Part shown: piece by piece, positions 2,356 through 32,000 of the stretch
Numbering within the stretch: position 1 is the first letter of the stretch
Layout: each line of letters starts with the position of its first letter
Assembly (NCBI GenBank): GCA_020632335.1
Contig: JACKFV010000001.1
Span: 270,001 to 302,000 of the forward strand
DNA length: 32,000 nt
Origin: Candidatus Saccharimonadota bacterium
GTDB lineage: Bacteria; Patescibacteriota; Gracilibacteria; UBA4473
Reading direction: 5' to 3'
Translations under genes and position numbers: made by a program
The notes under the pieces: generated by a model
Databases searched by the model: none
The model's input: only the letters and a program-made list of their open reading frames with translations
What the model was told of the DNA's origin: nothing

Positions 2356-3159
2356 ATGCGACAGTCTCTCTATACCGCGCTCTGGGAGTACACCGGCAAG
2401 CCTGGCAGAGCAGTGGCGTGGGCGCTCTCCTTGCTTATCTTCGTGGCTATTGCGGCCTTTGCGGTCGAGACAACCCCCGTGGGAGCCGCTCACCCGGGGG
2501 TCTTCCGCGTCATTAACTCCGTGCTTTTTGCGCTCTTTGGGCTGGAGTATCTGCTCCGGCTCTATGCTGCGCCAGACCGCTGGCGATTCCTCTTCTCCTT
2601 CACGGGCATGGTGGATTTGCTCGTGGTGGTGGGTTATGGGGGGGTCTTTATGAATGTGGCCTTCCTCCGAGGATTCCGCATTTTACGTATCCTCCAGGTG
2701 ATGCGCCTGGTACGGTATAACGAGGTCATGGGCAACTTCATGCGGGCCTTTCGCGCGTACAGAGACGAGCTGAGTATCTTCGTGGTCACGCTCAGCCTGG
2801 TGCTGCTCTTTAGCTCTAGCATCCTCTATGAGCTGGAGCATACCATTAACCCGGCGTTTGCGTCGCTGCCAGATGCGCTGTGGTGGGCCATTGTGACCAT
2901 CTCCACGGTGGGCTATGGCGATGTGGTGCCCATGACGGTGATCGGTAAGGTCTTCGGCGCGCTCATTATCATCATTGGGCTGAGTACCATGGCGATCATG
3001 ACGGCCATCATCACCAAGGTGTTTCTCGACCACTTCTTCTCAGCAGAGGAGCGCCGAGACATACGCCGGCTGCAGCGCAAAGAGGGGCAAGACGCTATTT
3101 GTCCGCACTGTGGGCTCCTTAAAGATGCAAGCCAAAAGCACCCACTCCCTCCAGAGTAG
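2356..3159 (+). CDS. voltage-gated K+ channel, 6TM Kv/KvAP-like
   Basis: S1-S6 hydrophobic segments are present. S4 reads LRGFRILRILQVMRLVRY with R at every third position (nt 2662-2715). The selectivity filter TVGYGD lies at nt 2905-2922. Confidence 0.88.
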   Translation: MRQSLYTALWEYTGKPGRAVAWALSLLIFVAIAAFAVETTPVGAAHPGVFRVINSVLFALFGLEYLLRLYAAPDRWRFLFSFTGMVDLLVVVGYGGVFMNVAFLRGFRILRILQVMRLVRYNEVMGNFMRAFRAYRDELSIFVVTLSLVLLFSSSILYELEHTINPAFASLPDALWWAIVTISTVGYGDVVPMTVIGKVFGALIIIIGLSTMAIMTAIITKVFLDHFFSAEERRDIRRLQRKEGQDAICPHCGLLKDASQKHPLPPE

Positions 3160-17583: not shown

Positions 17584-18240
17584 ATGAGCCTGACCACCAC
17601 TATAGAGAGCTGGCTGCCCGTCATTGCAGAGCACCAAACACTAGCGTACGGCGTGCTCTTCCTTGGGTCATACCTGGAGACCATCATCGGTGTGTGCTTC
17701 TTTATCTATGGGGAGGTGTTCTTCTTAGCAGGGAGCATTGCAGCGGGTGCGGGCACACTTGATATCTCTCTGGTGACGGGCGTGCTGCTGCTGGGGGGAG
17801 TGCTGGGAGACATCACCAGCTACTTCCTGGGGGAGTGCTATGGGTATAGGTGGTACCGCGCGCTGGAGCATATTCCCTTCATCCGGCACTACATAACGGA
17901 AGAGAACTACCTCAAGGGCTGCAGATTCTTTGAGCAGCATGGGGCAAAGAGCGTCTTTTTTGCCCGGCTACTAGGCCCTCTCTCCTGGATAACCCCTTTC
18001 CTCAGCGGTATCTACCGCCTGCCATTCCGGTCCTTCCTCCCCTATGACGTGCTGGGGGTTGTCGTCGGCATTGGGCAGTTTATCGTGGTGGGGTACTTCT
18101 TTGGCGTCCACTATGACCGTATCCTCCCCGTGATGTCGGAGTACCTGAGCATCGCCGTAGGAGGCATCCTACTCCTGCTGGTGCTGCGCTATCTCTCCCG
18201 TGCCAGGGCATTCCGTAAAGAACCCCCTGCTCAAGAGTAA
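17584..18240 (+). CDS. DedA / SNARE-associated family membrane protein
   Basis: DedA motifs are present: ETIIGVCFFIYGE and FFEQHGAKSVFFARLLGPLSWITPFLSG. Confidence 0.85.
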   Translation: MSLTTTIESWLPVIAEHQTLAYGVLFLGSYLETIIGVCFFIYGEVFFLAGSIAAGAGTLDISLVTGVLLLGGVLGDITSYFLGECYGYRWYRALEHIPFIRHYITEENYLKGCRFFEQHGAKSVFFARLLGPLSWITPFLSGIYRLPFRSFLPYDVLGVVVGIGQFIVVGYFFGVHYDRILPVMSEYLSIAVGGILLLLVLRYLSRARAFRKEPPAQE

Positions 18241-18257
18241 GGGAAGTAATAATAGTC

Positions 18258-18347
18258 TGGTGCACAGGAGAGGACTCGAACCTCCACGAGAAAAAATATC
18301 TCACAAGACCCTCAATCTTGCGCGTCTACCAATTCCGCCACCTGTGC
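18258..18347 (-). tRNA. tRNA-Leu (anticodon GAG), type II with a long variable arm and genomically encoded CCA
   Basis: The reverse complement folds by hand. The acceptor stem is GCACAGG/CCTGTGC and the D arm is GCG-GAATTGGTAGA-CGC. The anticodon stem CAAGA/TCTTG carries the loop TTGAGGG. The variable arm is GAGA...TCTC, the T arm is GGAGG-TTCGAGT-CCTCT, and the discriminator A is followed by CCA. Confidence 0.88.
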
Positions 18348-18448
18348 ATAAAAGAACCCCCTGCAGGATAGGAGTCCCCACAAAGCTGTCAAAACAATTT
18401 GCCTTCTCTCATAGAGAGGTCTATACAGGTGCCGTACACTCATCTGGT

Positions 18449-20455
18449 ATGGAACAGAGTCCGTTTTTCCTCTATACTCTCTCGTTTTTGCTGCTGCTGG
18501 GCATAGCGTGCATCGTGCAGCTCTTTATGCAGAAGATCCGCCAGCCGGCCAGCCTGGGGCTGCTGCTGACGGGGATTATCCTCAGCCTGCTGCACACCAC
18601 GCCCATTGGGCAGTACTTCGTGCTGGAGTTCAGCCCCGAGCTACTGCTGTATATTTTCCTCCCGACGCTGATTTTTGAGTCGGCCTCCAGCCTGAAACTC
18701 CGTACGCTGCGGTCACTGCTGCCTGAGATTCTCTCACTCGCCACGGTGGGGCTGGTGCTCTTTATCCTCATTATGGGGGTCACGCTACACTATGTGGTGG
18801 GGTTCCGCTGGGCGCTGAGTTTCCTCTTTGCCAGCATCATCGCGCCCACAGACCCCACTGCGGTAGTGGGAGTGCTCAAGCGCATTAGCCTGCCGCAGAA
18901 GCTCCGAACGCTCATCGAGGGGGAGAGCCTGGTGAACGACGGTACGTCAGTGGTGGTGTTTCAGATCCTCCTGGGGGTCATCGTCGCAGCAGAGCTGCAC
19001 TTTACTCCGGGGTTTTTCCTCGTCCAGGCCGAGCATACCTTCCGGCATATCTTCGGTGCGCTAGCAGTGGGGGGCGTGATGGGGGGGGCTTTTCTCCTCG
19101 CGCTGCGTAACACGCACTACCGGCCGGTACAGCTGGCTATTAGCTTCCTGCTGGCGCACAGTACTTTTCTCATTGCGGAGGGGATTTTTCACGTCTCGGG
19201 CATCATCGCTACCCTCACTGCGGGGCTTATCCTCGGGAATCTCATCGGGGGCCGTATGGAAGAAAAATCAGCGGAGATCTTCCACGAAGTGTGGAATTTC
19301 CTCGGGTTTCTCTCCCATGCCATGATCTTCCTGCTCCTGGGGATGAAGATCGGTACGCTGGATTTCCTCCCCTACTGGAAGGAAATCCTGGTCACGAGCC
19401 TACTGGTGATCTTCTTCGGCCGACCGCTGAGCGTACTGCTCAACCTCTGGGTGACTAATCTCTTCCGCCCTGCTGCACAGAAGATCAGCCTCACGCACCA
19501 GGGGATCATCATCTGGGGGGGGCTCCGTGGGGCGCTGAGTGCGGCCATGGTGCTGCTGGTGCCCAGCACGCTCCCCTACGCAGACCTGCTCGTAGTGCTG
19601 GTGACGGGCTGCATTATGCTCACTTTCCTCATCAACGCCACCACGCTGGAGACCGTGATGAAGAAAGTCCACGAGCGCCAGCGCGGCTTCTCAGACTCTG
19701 TGCGAGAGATGGAGACCGATATTCTCGTCGACGAGCAACTGCGCCTGGAGCTAAAAGAGCTCTCAGAGAAGTCACTGCTGTCTCCTCCGGTCTACGCCGC
19801 CATGGAGAAGCGCTATGCCAAGCATGAGCGCAGCACCGCTAAGCGCCTGGCGGAGATACAGAACCAGCTGAGTGGCGAGGAAACCCGTGAGATAGAGAAG
19901 ATGCTGAACTACCACGTGCTGATGATAGAGCTGCAGGAGTACCACAAGCTCTTCCAGCTGAAGGAGATCTCTGAGAAGCGACTGCAGGTGCTGCAGGAGA
20001 GCATCTGGCGGCAGGTAGACCGACTGGAGCTGGATATCCTCCCCGAGGAACACGAGAAGATCGGTGGCAAGACGGCCCCCCACATCCCCAAGCAGTGCCG
20101 CTGGCAGCAGAGTACGCTCTTTGGCCTGCCCTATAAGTGGTGGCGTCGCAAGCGCCAGAAGCAGATCTTGGAGCGGCTAGACCACTACCGCGCACGGGCG
20201 CTTTCGGGCAGGGCTGTCATCCAGCAACTCCAGCACATGCACCAGATGAAGGAGCTCCAGTGCGAGTGGCCTATGATAGACCGTATCATCGCGCGCTATG
20301 TCGCCTGGGTGGCCAACGCCGAAGAGAAGGCAGAGGCCCTGCGGACGGAGTACCCCGAGCTGCTCTTTGAGGCCGAGATGCAGGTGGCCGAGCACTACTG
20401 CTGCCTGCGGGGGCAAGAGCTGCGTGACGAGATCTCCGCCATGCGCCACGCCTAA
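18449..20455 (+). CDS. Na+/H+ antiporter, CPA1 (NhaP-type) with a long helical cytoplasmic C-terminal domain
   Basis: There are roughly 11-12 TM segments with FASIIAPTDP and GESLVNDGTSVVVF motifs. The start is set at ATG 18449 because the listed start at 18200 runs through the tRNA gene. Confidence 0.85.
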   Translation: MEQSPFFLYTLSFLLLLGIACIVQLFMQKIRQPASLGLLLTGIILSLLHTTPIGQYFVLEFSPELLLYIFLPTLIFESASSLKLRTLRSLLPEILSLATVGLVLFILIMGVTLHYVVGFRWALSFLFASIIAPTDPTAVVGVLKRISLPQKLRTLIEGESLVNDGTSVVVFQILLGVIVAAELHFTPGFFLVQAEHTFRHIFGALAVGGVMGGAFLLALRNTHYRPVQLAISFLLAHSTFLIAEGIFHVSGIIATLTAGLILGNLIGGRMEEKSAEIFHEVWNFLGFLSHAMIFLLLGMKIGTLDFLPYWKEILVTSLLVIFFGRPLSVLLNLWVTNLFRPAAQKISLTHQGIIIWGGLRGALSAAMVLLVPSTLPYADLLVVLVTGCIMLTFLINATTLETVMKKVHERQRGFSDSVREMETDILVDEQLRLELKELSEKSLLSPPVYAAMEKRYAKHERSTAKRLAEIQNQLSGEETREIEKMLNYHVLMIELQEYHKLFQLKEISEKRLQVLQESIWRQVDRLELDILPEEHEKIGGKTAPHIPKQCRWQQSTLFGLPYKWWRRKRQKQILERLDHYRARALSGRAVIQQLQHMHQMKELQCEWPMIDRIIARYVAWVANAEEKAEALRTEYPELLFEAEMQVAEHYCCLRGQELRDEISAMRHA

Positions 20456-26658: not shown

Positions 26659-27099
26659 TCAAGAGGATTTCGTGCCGTGGCTATCCAGTAGCGCCGCCAG
26701 GTTCTCGATGGTATTACTCGCCACCGCCTCCTTCCCCGTGAGGACCTGCGCAGGGGCCTCCGTCAGGCGAAAGCTCTGCGTCACGCTCACGAGCGGCTCG
26801 CCCGAACCCATCTGCCAGTAGCGCCGGGAGGGACGGAAAAAGAGCTGCTCTGAGAGCGTTAAGATGAACTGCACCAGCGTCATTTCTTGGTAGGTGAAGA
26901 AGGCAAACGCCGCCGCAATACCGAGCGGAAACCACAGCAGCACTGACTCGATGAGGTTGAGCGCGTAGAGCTTGCCCACCGAGGTATAGAGCCCGTAAGA
27001 CGCAAAGAAGCCGATGAGCAGGTAGATCAGCTGCCGAAAAGACACAAACCAGAAGATCTTGTCTTCGCGGTCTATGTCTTGGGGAACTTTGAATCGCAT
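26659..27099 (-). CDS. PrgI-family (VirB3-like) small membrane protein
   Basis: The N-terminus MRFKVPQDIDREDKIFWFVSFRQLIYLL matches the PrgI-family signature (..KVPqnId.EDKi...lt.rQ..yl) and is followed by two TM helices. Confidence 0.65.
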   Translation of the reverse strand: MRFKVPQDIDREDKIFWFVSFRQLIYLLIGFFASYGLYTSVGKLYALNLIESVLLWFPLGIAAAFAFFTYQEMTLVQFILTLSEQLFFRPSRRYWQMGSGEPLVSVTQSFRLTEAPAQVLTGKEAVASNTIENLAALLDSHGTKSS

Positions 27100-27167: not shown

Positions 27168-29459
27168 CTAGCGGCAGTCCTGCGGGCCGTCACACTGCTG
27201 GTAGGCATGCTGCCCCACCCACTGCTGCACGCAGGTGTCGGGAGTGGTGCCGGCGTCCATACAGCGCTGGAAGGCCGCCCAGGGCATAGAGCCGTCGTTC
27301 TGCGGGGTGGATACCTTACACGGGTAGCCAGCCTGCACCAGATAGCCAAAGCTGGTGGGATTCACGGCCTCCTCACAGATGCCCACGCTCGGCATAGCGA
27401 CGTCACCGGTGTTCTGGCTGGCCAGCGGGGTGATGCGGTAGCTGGTGCCGAGGGAGTTGAAATCGCTCTCGGTCACGTGCACGCAGTACTTGGTGATCTC
27501 ACAGCTTAGGTCGTTGCGGGCCTCTAGGTAGTCAGTACCCGCGGGGTGGTCATAGGGCAGGCAGGATTTCATCACCACGCACTGCTGCTCGGGGCTCTGG
27601 TAGTAGGGCTGGTTATTCACCCACTCGCCTTCCCCGATCTCCTTATGCTTGCAGTAGATGGCGTCATCGTAGGCAAAGCAGTTGAAGGTCACCGGTACCG
27701 GAGCGGGTGTAGTACAGCTGCCCAGGGAATCCCCATGGCTCAGGTGGCCCTTCAGCGAGTTCTCATCTACCGTGATGGTCTCGGCTTTGGAGGTGTCTGG
27801 CGCGTGGCAGAGGGTGATTTTGTCGGTGGGGGCACCACAGTCGGTGTCGCTCCCACACATGCGGTAGCCCTGGCTGACGGCCCACTCCGCGCTACAGTCT
27901 ACGGCAGATTTCTTACTATTCTGCATACAGAGGGCGAATCGCGCATAGCCGGGGTCTGTAGGTTGTGGCCGGCGCGCCGTACACTGGGCATCGGTACAGA
28001 TGTTCACCGCGACAATGTCTGACTCGGTGAAGGTCACCAGCTCCACCGGACCGGTATAACCATTATCCGGGAGCTCGGGGCACTGGGAATCCGCCGTGCA
28101 CGTCATGCGGTTATTCTTCTCGCCATAGGCAGCGTAGCAGTCGTCCAGAGGGGCCTGGTTGTACTTCACACACTTATAGAGCTCGTCATACCCCGGCGAA
28201 TAGGGGTCGACGATGTCCTCTATGCACTGCTGGCCATAGTTACAGTAGCCAATGGTGAGGGTTTCTCCCTCAGGGGCCCCTCCCCCAGAACCGCCACCGC
28301 ATTCGTTATCAGTACTGCAGCTGCTCAGGCCATTTGCCTCTGCCCACGCCGCGCCACAGGTAGCCGCGTCGCCGGTGGACTGCATACAATCCAGTAGATC
28401 TGCGTACCCGGCACTCCCCGGCTGGGGCAGCTGTGGCACACAGGCAGGCGCCCCGAGGGTACTGACACCACAGGTACTCACGAGTGGAGCAGTGGGGTCA
28501 TCCGTAGGCGGCGCGTCTACCCCTGCCACACATGAGGCTCCATCAGAGCCACTTACGCTATCCCCGGTGTCCAGCAGTGTGCTGACGCCAGTAGCGGTAT
28601 TAGAGAGGAAGAGCTTTCCGTCATTCTGGTAGAGGTAGAGCCGGCCATCTGCATGGAAGAATGCCGCCCCTGCCGAGCCCTGCACGGCCGTCTGCGCGGG
28701 GCCAACGTAGCTGGTGGTCCCGGTATTGGGGTTGATCTTCACGAGGCGATCTGTGCCGCTATCAAAGGCGTACCAGTAACCATCAAGCGGATTACGCGCG
28801 ATGTCGGCGATATTGGGGACGCTCCCCCCCGGAGGCGCTATCAGTGGCACCTGCTGGGTCACTGTGGGCGGAGTAGCGGTGACATCAATGAACTGCAGGG
28901 GGCTGGTACCGCCATTCACCAGGTAGGTTCCGTCAGCCAAGAAGGCCCCCGAGAAGGCGCCGCTCTGTACCCCGGTGATGGCTCCCACCACTGCTTCTTC
29001 ATCGTTGGCGCCTATGCGCAGCAGGTCACTCCCCGCTATGGCGTAGATAAAGCCGTCCACGGGGTTAAACGCCGTGGCGTTATACGCGGTGCTCGAGGTG
29101 CCCACAACCGTGCTGGTCATGGCTCCGCTGCCGTCTACCACCAGCCGCTGGAGCGTTGTGCTCCCTCCACTAGTGAGCGAGAGATAGAGGTCTGCATTAC
29201 ACGCAAAGGGAGTCGGTGATGCCCCAGTGCCAGCAGCCGGGGATTTTTTTACCCCGTTATTATTTTCATTCGTTGTGGCGTTGCTGTTGGCATTCGTGTT
29301 GGCATTCCCCGTGCCGGCGCTCTCCTTGCCCACGGCCTGCGCTTGGAGCTGCTCCCCCTGCAGGGCGGCGAGTTCTCTGGTCTGCTGGTCATAACGCACA
29401 TAGAACATCCCCGCGAGAAAAGCGAGTGCGAGGCCAAACAGGAGAGAGAATCGACGCAT
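27168..29459 (-). CDS. large secreted or anchored Cys-rich surface protein of unknown function
   Basis: The 763-aa ORF has an N-terminal signal/anchor (MRRFSLLFGLALAFLAGMF) and an Asn-rich linker. A propeller-like region follows, with recurring YNA.AFNP.DGF.Y, DGYWYAF and DGRLYLY blades. After that come four six-Cys modules and an ICH..HGD motif. Confidence 0.7.
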   Translation of the reverse strand: MRRFSLLFGLALAFLAGMFYVRYDQQTRELAALQGEQLQAQAVGKESAGTGNANTNANSNATTNENNNGVKKSPAAGTGASPTPFACNADLYLSLTSGGSTTLQRLVVDGSGAMTSTVVGTSSTAYNATAFNPVDGFIYAIAGSDLLRIGANDEEAVVGAITGVQSGAFSGAFLADGTYLVNGGTSPLQFIDVTATPPTVTQQVPLIAPPGGSVPNIADIARNPLDGYWYAFDSGTDRLVKINPNTGTTSYVGPAQTAVQGSAGAAFFHADGRLYLYQNDGKLFLSNTATGVSTLLDTGDSVSGSDGASCVAGVDAPPTDDPTAPLVSTCGVSTLGAPACVPQLPQPGSAGYADLLDCMQSTGDAATCGAAWAEANGLSSCSTDNECGGGSGGGAPEGETLTIGYCNYGQQCIEDIVDPYSPGYDELYKCVKYNQAPLDDCYAAYGEKNNRMTCTADSQCPELPDNGYTGPVELVTFTESDIVAVNICTDAQCTARRPQPTDPGYARFALCMQNSKKSAVDCSAEWAVSQGYRMCGSDTDCGAPTDKITLCHAPDTSKAETITVDENSLKGHLSHGDSLGSCTTPAPVPVTFNCFAYDDAIYCKHKEIGEGEWVNNQPYYQSPEQQCVVMKSCLPYDHPAGTDYLEARNDLSCEITKYCVHVTESDFNSLGTSYRITPLASQNTGDVAMPSVGICEEAVNPTSFGYLVQAGYPCKVSTPQNDGSMPWAAFQRCMDAGTTPDTCVQQWVGQHAYQQCDGPQDCR
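27174..28472 (-). repeat. four protein-level copies of a six-cysteine module within the 763-aa ORF
   Basis: Modules lie at aa 330-387, 406-460, 488-541 and 695-762 (nt 28299-28472, 28080-28244, 27837-27998, 27174-27377). The shared spacing is C-x(4-19)-C-x(17-18)-C-x(9-10)-C-x12-C-x5-C. A conserved PGY/GY and an aromatic residue three positions after the fourth Cys are also shared. Confidence 0.7.
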
Positions 29460-29552: not shown

Positions 29553-30119
29553 TTATAGTACTACCGCACCACCAGATACCCACCAGTAGAACCCGATGCC
29601 AAAGCCCACCAGGCACAGCACTCCGAGGGCGTGGTCCAGTGGCGAGCCAGTAGGCACCCGCCAGCCGCGAGGCACCACATGCCGGCACTGGGTGATGCGC
29701 AGCAGCGGCCAATAGAGTGGCACTCCGTGGGGTGTCATAGCGTCCAGCAGCAGGTGGCTTGTATACCCGAAGAAGAACGCCAGTGCACTGAGCCACGGCG
29801 TGGGGGCGGAGAGCAGCAGCGCTATACCCCCTACCAGCAGGCCTCCTATAAGAGCAGCCACCAGCGTATGGGTATAGGTGCGATGTGCAAAGAGCCGGCT
29901 GCCGAGCACACACAGCGGCATAAAGGGCTTAAAGGTGAAGCGACGGGTCAAGCGTAAGCCCATATGCGCCACGGTGGCCTGCTGCCCAGAGGCGTCAAAG
30001 TCAGGAAAAACGCCCCCCAGGCCTGCCAGCGCCACATGGGTCAGGCTGAGTTCGCCCGCCAGTGGAGCCACCAAAAGGCTCATACACAGGCCGGCGGCCA
30101 GGTGCGTACGGCCTATCAT
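29553..30119 (-). CDS. YdjM-family (DUF457) membrane-bound metal-dependent hydrolase
   Basis: The N-terminus contains GRTHL. Motifs FPDFDA, FAHRTYTHTLV and GYTSHLLLDAMTPHGVPLYWP are collinear with E. coli YdjM (LPDIDH, FGHRGFTHSLL, GYLSHILADMLTPAGVPLLWP). Confidence 0.8.
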   Translation of the reverse strand: MIGRTHLAAGLCMSLLVAPLAGELSLTHVALAGLGGVFPDFDASGQQATVAHMGLRLTRRFTFKPFMPLCVLGSRLFAHRTYTHTLVAALIGGLLVGGIALLLSAPTPWLSALAFFFGYTSHLLLDAMTPHGVPLYWPLLRITQCRHVVPRGWRVPTGSPLDHALGVLCLVGFGIGFYWWVSGGAVVL

Positions 30120-30994
30120 GCCCCCGTGCGGAAGTGGTAGATCTCCTGCGCTACGGACTCCGCGTGCGGAATAACCCTCAGTCGCGTGACGCCCTGGGTA
30201 GCGGAGTTGATCTTGAGCGTGCCATAGCCGAATACCCAGCCCCAGAAGCCGGCTTTTTCTGCTGTTACCTTCCCGAGGGTAGCCCAGAGCTCGGACTGCC
30301 GCCAGGTGCCAAAGAGCTCTCTATTCTGTACAATCAGTCGCTCAGACGTGAGAAAAAGCAGGTCGTGGTTATAGTCCAGCCAGTGCCCCCAGAAGAAGAT
30401 CAGCGCCGACACCCCAAAGCACGCCGCAAATATATGCCCCCAGAGGCTGCCCGGTAGTGCCCACCACATATAGATGGCCGCCATCATACAGAGGAGCACC
30501 ACGCCCATACCCCGGTAGAACACCACCGGGTGGTGCTGCACCACCGCCAGCAGGCGCTCACCAGGGAGCGGCGCATACACATGCCCCTCCACCGCAGCGG
30601 CGCGGTCAGCACTGGTGACCTCACTCCCTCCGTAGAGGCGGGCAAACTTGGCTATCCGTAAGATACGCAGTGGCGCAAACACCGGCGGGATGAGGTCTAC
30701 CCCCACCAGCGGCAGGTAGAACGGCACCACCGCGAGGAAGTCGATCAGCCCCCACCAGCTGAAGATATACCGCAGGCGGTCCCTCGCCGAGAGGATACGC
30801 AGAACGTACTCCACGGTGAAGAGCCCCAGCGCCAGGCGTTCGAAGGTCTGTACCAGCGGCCACTGCTGCGCGCTCCCCCAGATCTCAAAGGGCAGCAGCG
30901 CCACCGAGAGCAAGATCACCAGCACCAGCAGCCCGTGGAAGAGGCGACTCAGCGGCCGGAAGGGTTGGAAGAGGAGACGGTGCAGCCATGCCAT
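30116..30994 (-). CDS. pore-less voltage-sensor domain (S1-S4) fused to a membrane-flanked bPH_2 domain
   Basis: Residues 17-121 are collinear with S1-S4 of the K+ channel at 2356. S2 has FTVEYVLRIL, S3 has WGLIDFLAVVPF, and S4 reads LRILRIAKFARL with R/K at every third position. Residues 146-288 form two TM helices plus LFLTSERLIVQ...WVFGYGTLKIN. There is no TVGYG-type P-loop. Confidence 0.7.
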   Translation of the reverse strand: MAWLHRLLFQPFRPLSRLFHGLLVLVILLSVALLPFEIWGSAQQWPLVQTFERLALGLFTVEYVLRILSARDRLRYIFSWWGLIDFLAVVPFYLPLVGVDLIPPVFAPLRILRIAKFARLYGGSEVTSADRAAAVEGHVYAPLPGERLLAVVQHHPVVFYRGMGVVLLCMMAAIYMWWALPGSLWGHIFAACFGVSALIFFWGHWLDYNHDLLFLTSERLIVQNRELFGTWRQSELWATLGKVTAEKAGFWGWVFGYGTLKINSATQGVTRLRVIPHAESVAQEIYHFRTGA

Positions 30995-31000
30995 ATGCTA

Positions 31001-31028
31001 ATTATGCAGCTTATGAGAAATACCGCAA
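31001..31028 (-). promoter_or_regulatory. sigma70-type promoter predicting a leaderless mRNA for the voltage-sensor/bPH gene
   Basis: On the minus strand: TTGCGG (31028-31023), 16 nt, CATAAT (31006-31001), 6 nt, then ATG at 30994. Confidence 0.4.
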
Positions 31029-31048
31029 GGCAAAACGCAGCGCTGGCA

Positions 31049-31076
31049 TTGCTCAGTGGTCATGGTTTTTTATCAT
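31049..31076 (+). promoter_or_regulatory. sigma70-type promoter predicting a leaderless SLH-protein mRNA
   Basis: TTGCTC (31049-31054), 16 nt, TATCAT (31071-31076), 6 nt, then ATG at 31083. Confidence 0.4.
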
Positions 31077-31082
31077 ACGGGT

Positions 31083-32000
31083 ATGGTGTGTCCTCGCATT
31101 CTTCGCCTTCGGAGTGGGTATCTGGCGTGGGGTATCTCTCTCGGGATCCTCAGTATATTGCTGCCACTGCAGAGCCTAGCAATAGGATTTAGTGATAATA
31201 GCGCTATTCCCTCCTGGGCGGGGCCGGCCATCTATTCGCTGGGGGAGCGGGGTATCATCACCGGGAATGGCGATGGGAGCTTTGCCCCTGACCGGCCGGT
31301 GAACCGCGCGGAGTTCGCGAAGCTCTTTGTCGGTCTGCACAATCTGCCGGGAGCGGCACTGGCCGCGGGGCAGTTTACTGACGTCAGCGGTGACGAGTGG
31401 TATGCCCCTTACGTGGGGGCCGCGGTGGCCAAGGGCTGGCTGAATGGCTATAGCGACAAGACCTTTCGCCCGGGGGACCCCATCAACCGTGCCGAGGTAG
31501 CGAAAATCATCGGGGAGGCGCTGGACGAGCCCTTTAAAAGTGATATCCCTGCCGGAGCGCCGTGGTATGATAAGTACTTCTATAAGCTGAATGATACCGG
31601 GCTGATGGCGCACGGAACGGATTTCTCCAACGCCGAGCCGGCCGTATACCCCACCCGCGCCGAGGTGAGCGAGCAGCTCTTCCGGTATATGATCTACCGG
31701 CAGTTCCTCACCACAGAGGATCTGCAGCCCTTTGACGGCTTTGACCCGTATACCGCTACGGGGGGCGTGATGGTGGTGAGTGACAGCCTCAGCAGCACAG
31801 ACCCCCTAGCAGATGCGAGCATGTACGAGTATATTGAGCCCTTCCCGCTGCGCTACCCCATCAGCCCCAATGCCGGCACGATGCATATACAAGACACCGG
31901 GCAGCTGGAGGCGGGCTATTATCTAGAGCCAGACGAGCGGAATATCGCGCTGCACTCGCTGCAGTTTACGTGTGAGAAGACGGCCGAGTGCAAGCTCTAC
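31083..32000 (+). CDS. SLH-domain surface protein, 3' end cut by the window edge
   Basis: Frame 3 is open from 31017 to the window end. The ATG at 31083 gives the signal peptide MVCPRILRLRSGYLAWGISLGILSILLPLQSLA. SLH repeats follow: FSDNSAIPSWAGPAIYSLGERGIITGNGDGSFAPDRPVNRAEFAKL and FTDVSGDEWYAPYVGAAVAKGWLNGYSDKTFRPGDPINRAEVAKI. ATG 31062 is an alternative start. Confidence 0.8.
   Translation, partial: MVCPRILRLRSGYLAWGISLGILSILLPLQSLAIGFSDNSAIPSWAGPAIYSLGERGIITGNGDGSFAPDRPVNRAEFAKLFVGLHNLPGAALAAGQFTDVSGDEWYAPYVGAAVAKGWLNGYSDKTFRPGDPINRAEVAKIIGEALDEPFKSDIPAGAPWYDKYFYKLNDTGLMAHGTDFSNAEPAVYPTRAEVSEQLFRYMIYRQFLTTEDLQPFDGFDPYTATGGVMVVSDSLSSTDPLADASMYEYIEPFPLRYPISPNAGTMHIQDTGQLEAGYYLEPDERNIALHSLQFTCEKTAECKLY

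Follow-up and report, generated by a model that had tools for sequence, protein, structure and literature searches.

A pore-less Kv-type voltage-sensor domain joined to a YdbS-type bacterial PH module in Peribacteria and related Patescibacteria

A stretch of 32,000 nucleotides from Candidatus Saccharimonadota bacterium (contig JACKFV010000001.1, positions 270,001 to 302,000; hereafter the window, in whose numbering all coordinates are given) was analysed around a single minus-strand gene at 30116..30994 (stop codon included). According to the listing of open reading frames (ORFs) the gene is intact, and its 292-aa product agreed with the sequence first quoted in a preliminary description of this DNA, which had been made from the letters alone. 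The N-terminal half of the protein is a Kv-type voltage-sensor domain (VSD), comprising the four membrane helices S1-S4. No pore follows it. The C-terminal half is a membrane hairpin combined with a bacterial PH (bPH) domain, and the whole VSD-bPH architecture is conserved in a small family of divergent proteins. We propose that the protein is a voltage-controlled YdbS-type effector, a six-helix inner-membrane protein of two modules, and place the probability of this reading at roughly 0.6. All features of the gene given below lie on the minus strand.

The VSD occupies residues 14-122 (30629..30955). In a Pfam scan, residues 17-124 matched Ion_trans (PF00520) over profile positions 2-112 of 241 with 53.7 bits (cutoff 25; E=2.3e-14). 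In the same scan the 292-aa protein matched neither the pore half of this profile nor Ion_trans_2. The PDB was searched both with the single protein and with a family profile. The single protein matched S2-S4 of Kv4.2 and Kv4.3 at E~1e-7; the family profile matched S1-S4 of Kv4 at E~1e-21, together with Kv2.1, Kv3.1, Nav and Cav chains. These profile matches were all limited to profile positions ~3-134. The 60 best were all Kv, Nav or Cav chains, with no chain of Hv1 or of a voltage-sensing phosphatase (VSP) among them. All 43 of the 43 family members that were aligned also matched Ion_trans.

A monomer structure was predicted with AlphaFold from the 43-sequence alignment. The model reached a mean predicted local distance difference test score (pLDDT) of 90.7 and a predicted template modelling score of 0.86, and the linker between the two halves was its only soft region. 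A model built from four sequences was poor (pLDDT 66.5). Helices at residues 14-32, 42-69, 80-97 and 103-122 formed a four-helix bundle with high confidence. When the model was compared with the PDB by Foldseek, the top matches were Shaker, Kv4.2, Kv1.3 and Kv2.1 (probability 1.00, E down to 5.5e-5). The global TM-score of ~0.36 and root-mean-square deviation of ~14 A against Kv chains mean that the sensor alone superposes. The four-helix sensor announced in the preliminary description is thereby confirmed as an S1-S4 domain of the Kv type.

The residues on which a Kv sensor depends were then read from the 43-sequence alignment. The gating charge-transfer centre of a Kv sensor is built from the Phe of S2, the acidic residue beside it and the Asp of S3. 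S2 of the window protein (residues 42-69, 30788..30871) carries an outer acidic residue, E52 (E/D in 39/43), the charge-transfer Phe, F59 (39/43), an inner acidic residue, E62 (E/D in 43/43), and R66 (K/R in 40/43). S3 (residues 80-97, 30704..30757) contains the countercharge D85 (40/43) and an invariant proline, P91 (43/43); S79, just N-terminal of the helix, is also invariant (43/43). In S4 (residues 103-122, 30629..30688), basic residues occur at every third position, namely R110 (39/43), R113 (K/R in 43/43), K116 (K/R in 38/43) and R119 (K/R in 23/43). The segment previously assigned to S4, nucleotides 30635-30670, holds up and corresponds to residues 109-120. The conserved polar position of S1 is Ser30 (40/43), which we take to be of the Shaker type. 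The full set F59/E62/D85/R110/R113/K116 is kept in 34 of the 43 members at an overall identity of 18-36%, so selection has evidently acted on the voltage-sensing machinery itself. Conservation of the S4 charges together with the S2 and S3 countercharges had been named as a check on the sensor, and the family retains both. Judged from these residues, the sensor would be expected to move with voltage in the 292-aa protein.

A second gene of the window, at 2356-3159 (+), served for comparison. It encodes a true 267-aa six-transmembrane (6TM) K+ channel of the voltage-gated type, matching Ion_trans over residues 3-233 and Ion_trans_2, with a TVGYGD filter at residues 184-189. The sensor of the 292-aa protein aligned with S1-S4 of this channel, as had been described, at 33% identity over 105 residues with 5 gap positions (E=7e-10). 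The two proteins thus have homologous S1-S4 and six membrane helices each. Unlike the channel, the 292-aa protein has no S5-P-loop-S6, no Ion_trans_2 match and no filter between its helices. The missing pore was correctly recognised in the preliminary description: in the model, S4 is followed by a plain hairpin with a 4-residue loop (180-183) and no re-entrant loop. The further statement that no TVGYG-like filter occurs anywhere in the ORF stands for the space between the membrane helices, but a G-Y-G does occur. It is the only one in the protein, at residues 256-258 (FGYGT), within a beta-hairpin of the cytoplasmic PH domain. This G-Y-G was considered as a selectivity filter and rejected, as it does not lie between membrane helices. 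One genome therefore holds both a canonical K+ channel (2356-3159) and a pore-less sensor protein.

The C-terminal half begins after a cytoplasmic linker between S4 and the effector (residues 123-145, 30560..30628), in which the model places a short helix at 128-137. The linker was the part of the model with the lowest confidence, with a mean pLDDT of 62-69 over residues 121-140. Residues 146-155 (30530..30559) then comprise E146 (43/43), a strand at 148-153 and a K-H-P-type motif that includes H155 (39/43). The two closely spaced membrane helices noted earlier were recovered in the model as TM5, residues 156-179 (30458..30529), a continuous helix with pLDDT >90, and TM6, residues 184-210 (30365..30445). 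Both are hydrophobic. TM5 is without a conserved charged residue, while TM6 has recurring small residues at 186, 190 and 197 and conserved K203, W205 and D207 at its cytoplasmic end. The loop charges agree with the positive-inside rule: N-terminus, S2-S3 loop, linker and PH domain lie on the cytoplasmic side.

Residues 211-291 (30122..30364) form the cytoplasmic PH core, with seven strands and a C-terminal helix. The bPH_2 profile (PF03703) gave the 292-aa protein alone a sub-threshold score of 15.2 bits against a cutoff of 22 (E=0.025). Among the 43 family members, bPH_2 was matched in 26 (E<=0.01, best 2.9e-11) and bPH_3 in 27, and the earlier assignment to a YdbS/bPH_2-type domain is accordingly sound at the level of the family. 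A PH-like fold was present in the model, with strands within 212-276 and a helix at 278-291 (pLDDT ~95), and in Foldseek a solved bacterial PH domain (3dcx_A) aligned with it at 2.7 A over 85 columns with probability 1.00. D211, T216, R219 and G258 are invariant or nearly invariant in the family. Many homologs (P0002, P0003, P0004 and others) carry a charged, probably helical tail of 30-90 residues after the PH domain, which the window protein does not have.

In bacterial PH domains, a buried conserved Glu bonds a conserved Thr and a conserved Arg (Xu et al., PMC2817789). E146, T216 and R219 are present in 43/43 members and fit this triad by sequence. As E146 and the strand 148-153 precede the hairpin, the latter interrupts the PH domain, and the element to which S4 is tethered belongs to the core of the PH fold. 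For the C-terminal half (146-292) the most fitting description is a complete YdbS-type module consisting of the Glu strand, the hairpin and the PH domain. YdbS consists of two transmembrane helices and one PHb2 domain, YdbT of three such units, and the two are encoded by a gene pair (PMC8657885). Residues 146-292 correspond to one YdbS-type unit of the proteins YdbS/YdbT and DdE/DdF (COG3402/COG3428, bPH_2). Those proteins are without an N-terminal sensor, however, and the VSD-bPH gene is without a YdbS/YdbT-like partner gene.

The strongest argument for the proposed mechanism came from relatives that share only the C-terminal module. Among the 73 nearest of these, 67 matched bPH_2, and 49 carried an N-terminal cyclic-nucleotide-binding domain (CNBD) with no other output domain. 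The equivalent E, T and R are at least 90% conserved in the relatives, and the E, D, T, R and G residues are separated by 65, 5, 3 and 39 residues, a spacing identical to that of the window family. In P0056, P0062 and P0065 the CNBD is followed by two hairpin-PH units, and an element 'E-x6-[RK]-[RK]-H-[WP]' stands N-terminal to each membrane hairpin in the CNBD-bPH_2 relatives. P0056 (MBC7264659.1, from a metagenome-assembled genome (MAG) of Chloroflexota) reads CNBD, ~20 residues, 'PGE...RKHW', hairpin, 'DWRNDYYVVTNKR'. The layout of the window protein matches it, with 'PGE...QHHP', hairpin, 'WLDYNHDLLFLTSER'. These CNBD-(2TM-bPH_2)x2 proteins, with two transmembrane (2TM) helices per unit, are closest in sequence to the C-terminal module, and in both groups the sensor lies directly N-terminal of the Glu-strand-hairpin-PH unit. 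They differ in that their sensor is a CNBD and their module is duplicated. As the CNBD proteins have no other output domain, their ligand must exert its control on the hairpin-PH unit; transferred to the window protein, the argument would place its hairpin-PH unit under the control of the voltage sensor. The analogy suggests that the 2TM-PH module is a sensor-controlled effector. The CNBD-(2TM-bPH_2)x2 group itself (P0056, P0062, P0065 and 46 others) is large and apparently uncharacterised.

The extent of the family was determined by an exhaustive profile search, with members counted as cluster representatives at 50% identity. At E<=1e-30, 45 representatives were found, of which ~40, between 290 and 400 residues long, matched from end to end; these were collinear with the window protein and 18-36% identical to it. 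The search for orthologs of the same architecture, recommended beforehand, thus returned about 40 representatives. A word-indexed protein search with the family profile returned mostly ordinary channels and added two members. Database entries for members carry one of two names, 'ion transporter' or 'membrane protein YdbS with pleckstrin-like domain', and neither covers more than one half of the protein.

In addition, 185,579 species genomes were scanned with a subset of 12 family sequences, and the best 80 of 550 loci were inspected. Within these 80, full-length VSD-bPH matches were found in 11 species genomes, and the remaining loci matched the sensor only, as ordinary channels do. The 11 genomes comprised seven Peribacteria, one Gracilibacteria, one 'Altimarinota', one Patescibacteria-group bacterium (UBA4473) and one further MAG. 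Among the best 80 loci, genomic occurrence was therefore confined to Peribacteria, Gracilibacteria and related Patescibacteria. Three metagenomic proteins possibly represent pore-less architectures as well: P0082 (264 aa) contains two sensor stretches and no Ion_trans_2, P0067 has two sensor stretches and a weak Bestrophin_2 match (E=2e-4), and in P0081 (236 aa) the Ion_trans match ends at profile position 145.

In the mechanism that we propose, a change in membrane potential would move the S4 charges R110, R113 and K116 through the charge-transfer centre formed by F59, E62 and D85. The cytoplasmic end of S4 would be tethered, via the ~25-residue linker, to E146 and the strand 148-153, an element whose predicted packing partners are T216 and R219 at the base of the hairpin. 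With S4 tethered to an element of the split PH domain that packs there, its movement would alter the conformation or packing of the hairpin and PH ring, and the altered conformation or oligomeric packing would be the output. We infer in this way that sensor movement reaches the PH module. As to what the output does, our best guess is speculative: gating of a conduit by the 2TM-PH oligomer, or protection of the envelope on depolarisation. C5 and C12 rings are known from bacterial PH domains, and for membrane-anchored PH families a role as 'transporters or pores' has been proposed (PMC2817789). Export of a leaderless bacteriocin depends on DdE and DdF, which are homologs of YdbS/YdbT (PMC8657885). 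Taken together, the rings and the bacteriocin export make a gated conduit or an envelope-protective role plausible. Lipid binding by the PH module, which the preliminary description had also considered, found no support. The bacterial PH domains that have been solved assemble into oligomeric rings (PMC2817789).

Four observations weigh against a voltage-controlled effector. Most members have only three or four in-register basic residues in S4, and four members have only two. The linker varies in length and sequence across the family, save for an aromatic residue at position 140, and coupling through it could be loose. The hairpin is without conserved polar residues, unlike an ion-conducting lining; its hydrophobic character and small-residue packing positions make a water-filled path for ions less likely than packing of helices or oligomerisation. 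Finally, no conserved gene neighbour that would point to a pathway was found among the 11 genomic loci.

A wider proposal may be built on the same material, namely that 2TM-bPH_2 modules are gated membrane conduits free of a P-loop, which assemble via their PH rings, and that both canonical sensors of channels were recruited to them independently (S4 in the window family, the CNBD in the Chloroflexota-type proteins). We regard this proposal as tentative and, as things stand, unlikely. If it were true, the gene product would be a voltage-gated channel or exporter of a new kind, and the family would provide the first handle on YdbS/YdbT-type function.

Among the alternatives to a sensor-controlled effector, the one that survives best is that the sensor itself conducts protons or cations through its own crevice, as Hv1 and the isolated Shaker sensor do, with the 2TM-PH part serving only for anchoring or oligomerisation. 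Pore-less sensors are able to conduct, as Hv1 does and as is reported for the isolated Shaker VSD (PMC5092046). Pfam recognised no other permeation domain in the 292-aa protein, bacterial PH domains do oligomerise, and the few S4 charges recall Hv1, with which the protein also shares the lack of a pore. It differs from Hv1 in having two further membrane helices and a PH domain after S4. Ser30 occupies what we take to be the position of Asp112, the proton-selectivity Asp in S1 of Hv1. S4 reads LRILRIAK, without a Trp and without the RxWRxxR that we assume to be the Hv1 motif. The absence of Hv1 and VSP chains from the 60 best PDB matches and the conservation of the hydrophobic plug F59 speak against conduction through the crevice as well. 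The CNBD-bPH_2 relatives, moreover, keep the module without having a conducting sensor, which points to the module as the active part. A self-conducting sensor is on this evidence improbable.

Alternatively, S1-S4 may be a structural anchor that no longer senses voltage, comparable to the sensor-like domains of TRP channels, so that the protein would be a YdbS-type protein with four helices added. The presence of the fourth S4 charge in only 23/43 members, and the four members with two in-register charges, would fit this explanation. The strongest conservation in the N-terminal half nevertheless falls on the residues of a working sensor (E52, F59, E62, D85, R110, R113 and K116), and charges buried in the membrane would be needless for a mere anchor. 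We hold a non-sensing anchor to be distinctly improbable.

That the gene is a degraded or truncated K+ channel, or an assembly chimera without a function of its own, is effectively refuted: the 33% identity of its sensor to the true channel in the window and the NCBI label 'ion transporter' might suggest it, but the ORF is intact, the architecture recurs in ~40 divergent representatives and 11 species genomes, no pore-domain remnant was found by tblastn near the gene or its homologs, in keeping with the earlier view that it is no channel remnant, and the identical gene is present in two independent assemblies besides the MAG, in a base composition equal to that of the surrounding chromosome. 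The recurrence of the gene in the MAG and in two independent assemblies means that it is not an assembly artefact. Two sequencing runs had independently assembled the same gene with the same downstream gene. The NCBI record of the identical protein, 'ion transporter [Candidatus Peribacteria bacterium]', lies on a 630-kb contig, and Peribacteria are placed in the candidate phylum Peregrinibacteriota. The GC fraction around the gene is ~0.60-0.63, as in the rest of the window, and the window is ordinary chromosome, with genes for TGT, aldolase, UvrC, MutL, topoisomerase I and shikimate kinase. An NCBIfam scan of the 292-aa protein gave no match, and PADLOC, run on the gene and its neighbours, gave no match to a defence system.

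A scan for consensus sigma-70 promoters upstream of the gene on the minus strand found none. A CATAAT hexamer, read directly from the sequence and absent from the output of the consensus scan, is a candidate -10 box at 31001..31006 (-). It ends 6 nt 5' of the ATG, and no Shine-Dalgarno sequence is visible. A leaderless transcript of the 292-aa ORF is accordingly only plausible. Of the leaderless-type promoter ascribed to the gene in the preliminary description, the consensus scan gave no sign, and the CATAAT hexamer without a Shine-Dalgarno sequence remains as a candidate.

The downstream gene, at 29553..30119 (-), encodes a YdjM-family membrane protein (PF04307, E=2.6e-22) with weak similarity to Zn-dependent phospholipase C, and overlaps the stop codon of the 292-aa ORF by 4 nt. 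It is a lineage-specific neighbour: YdjM was absent beside the VSD-bPH homologs at 11/11 genomic loci. Queries with YdjM, DUF6923, PrgI, SpoU and SLH were all blank beside these 11 homologs, and a conserved operon partner was rejected. The flanks of the homologs are varied, mostly with convergent or divergent genes. They include a thioredoxin-reductase-like gene in two loci, an M23 peptidase in two, 7TM_transglut-PKD in two and DUF3352 in one. In four of the 11 loci (L001, L005, L008 and L009) dnaK, identified by eye from its N-terminus, lies divergently upstream; this is probably local synteny among related genomes. Most probably the VSD-bPH protein works by itself or as a homo-oligomer.

Further genes were recorded on either side of the window gene. 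An SLH-motif surface protein with a signal-peptide-like N-terminus (SLH assigned by eye) begins at ~31062 (+), is divergent from the gene and runs through 32000 beyond the window end. A 922-aa SLH/DPBB/CAP protein is encoded directly upstream of the homolog P0013 on the same strand (L081:1206-3974; L082:477-3245), and cell-surface (SLH) neighbours are thus a possible, weak recurrence. The divergent intergenic region of the window gene also holds a 63-aa ORF at 30988-31179 (+) with one hydrophobic helix (WSWFFIIRVWCVLAFFAFGVGIW), the start of which overlaps the VSD-bPH start codon on the opposite strand. The operon is closely followed downstream by 27168-29459 (-), which encodes a Cys-rich protein of 763 aa that looks secreted and has a DUF6923 repeat domain, and by 26659-27099 (-), encoding a small membrane protein of the PrgI family (type IV secretion-associated). 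At 18200-20455 (+), a 751-aa Na+/H+ exchanger (PF00999) is encoded, with a charged helical C-terminal extension of ~260 residues that has no Pfam match; translation probably begins at the Met of residue 84. This exchanger was considered as a sensor-bearing protein like SLC9C1 and rejected, as it has no similarity to the sensor family.

Compared with known systems, the closest analogy for the presumed working mode of the VSD-bPH protein is offered by the voltage-sensing phosphatases. Phosphatases of the Ci-VSP type share with it a pore-less S1-S4 and, on the cytoplasmic side, a short linker that connects S4 to an effector domain. In the window protein, however, the effector is a hairpin with a bacterial PH domain, Pfam matched no PTEN-like phosphatase or C2 domain, the host is a bacterium of the Candidate Phyla Radiation and not a eukaryote, and the sensor is closest to Kv4, Kv2 and Kv3. 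The sperm Na+/H+ exchanger SLC9C1, which carries a VSD and a CNBD, likewise has a voltage sensor on something other than a tetrameric P-loop pore, but it is a eukaryotic protein with a well-understood exchanger fold as effector. One report describes SLC9C1 as the sole transporter known to be under the control of voltage-sensing domains (PMC10620092). The pore-less voltage-sensor proteins described in the literature searched (Hv1, the phosphatases, HVRP1/TMEM266 and SLC9C1) are all eukaryotic, and the corresponding statement of the preliminary description is correct within that literature. No description of a VSD-bPH protein was found in the same literature, which covers few subscription journals.

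The family varies a known theme, a voltage sensor coupled to an effector other than a pore; what is new is the effector and the occurrence in bacteria. New also is that one C-terminal module sits behind a voltage sensor in some proteins and behind a cyclic-nucleotide sensor in others. The two sensor types give two defined stimuli with which the bPH_2 membrane module could be switched in vitro and its action read out. Being 292 aa long and encoded by a single gene, the protein is an attractive minimal system for electromechanical coupling, and perhaps for voltage-controlled tools. A conserved bacterial Kv-type sensor coupled to a non-channel module would show that voltage signalling in bacteria extends beyond the opening of P-loop pores.

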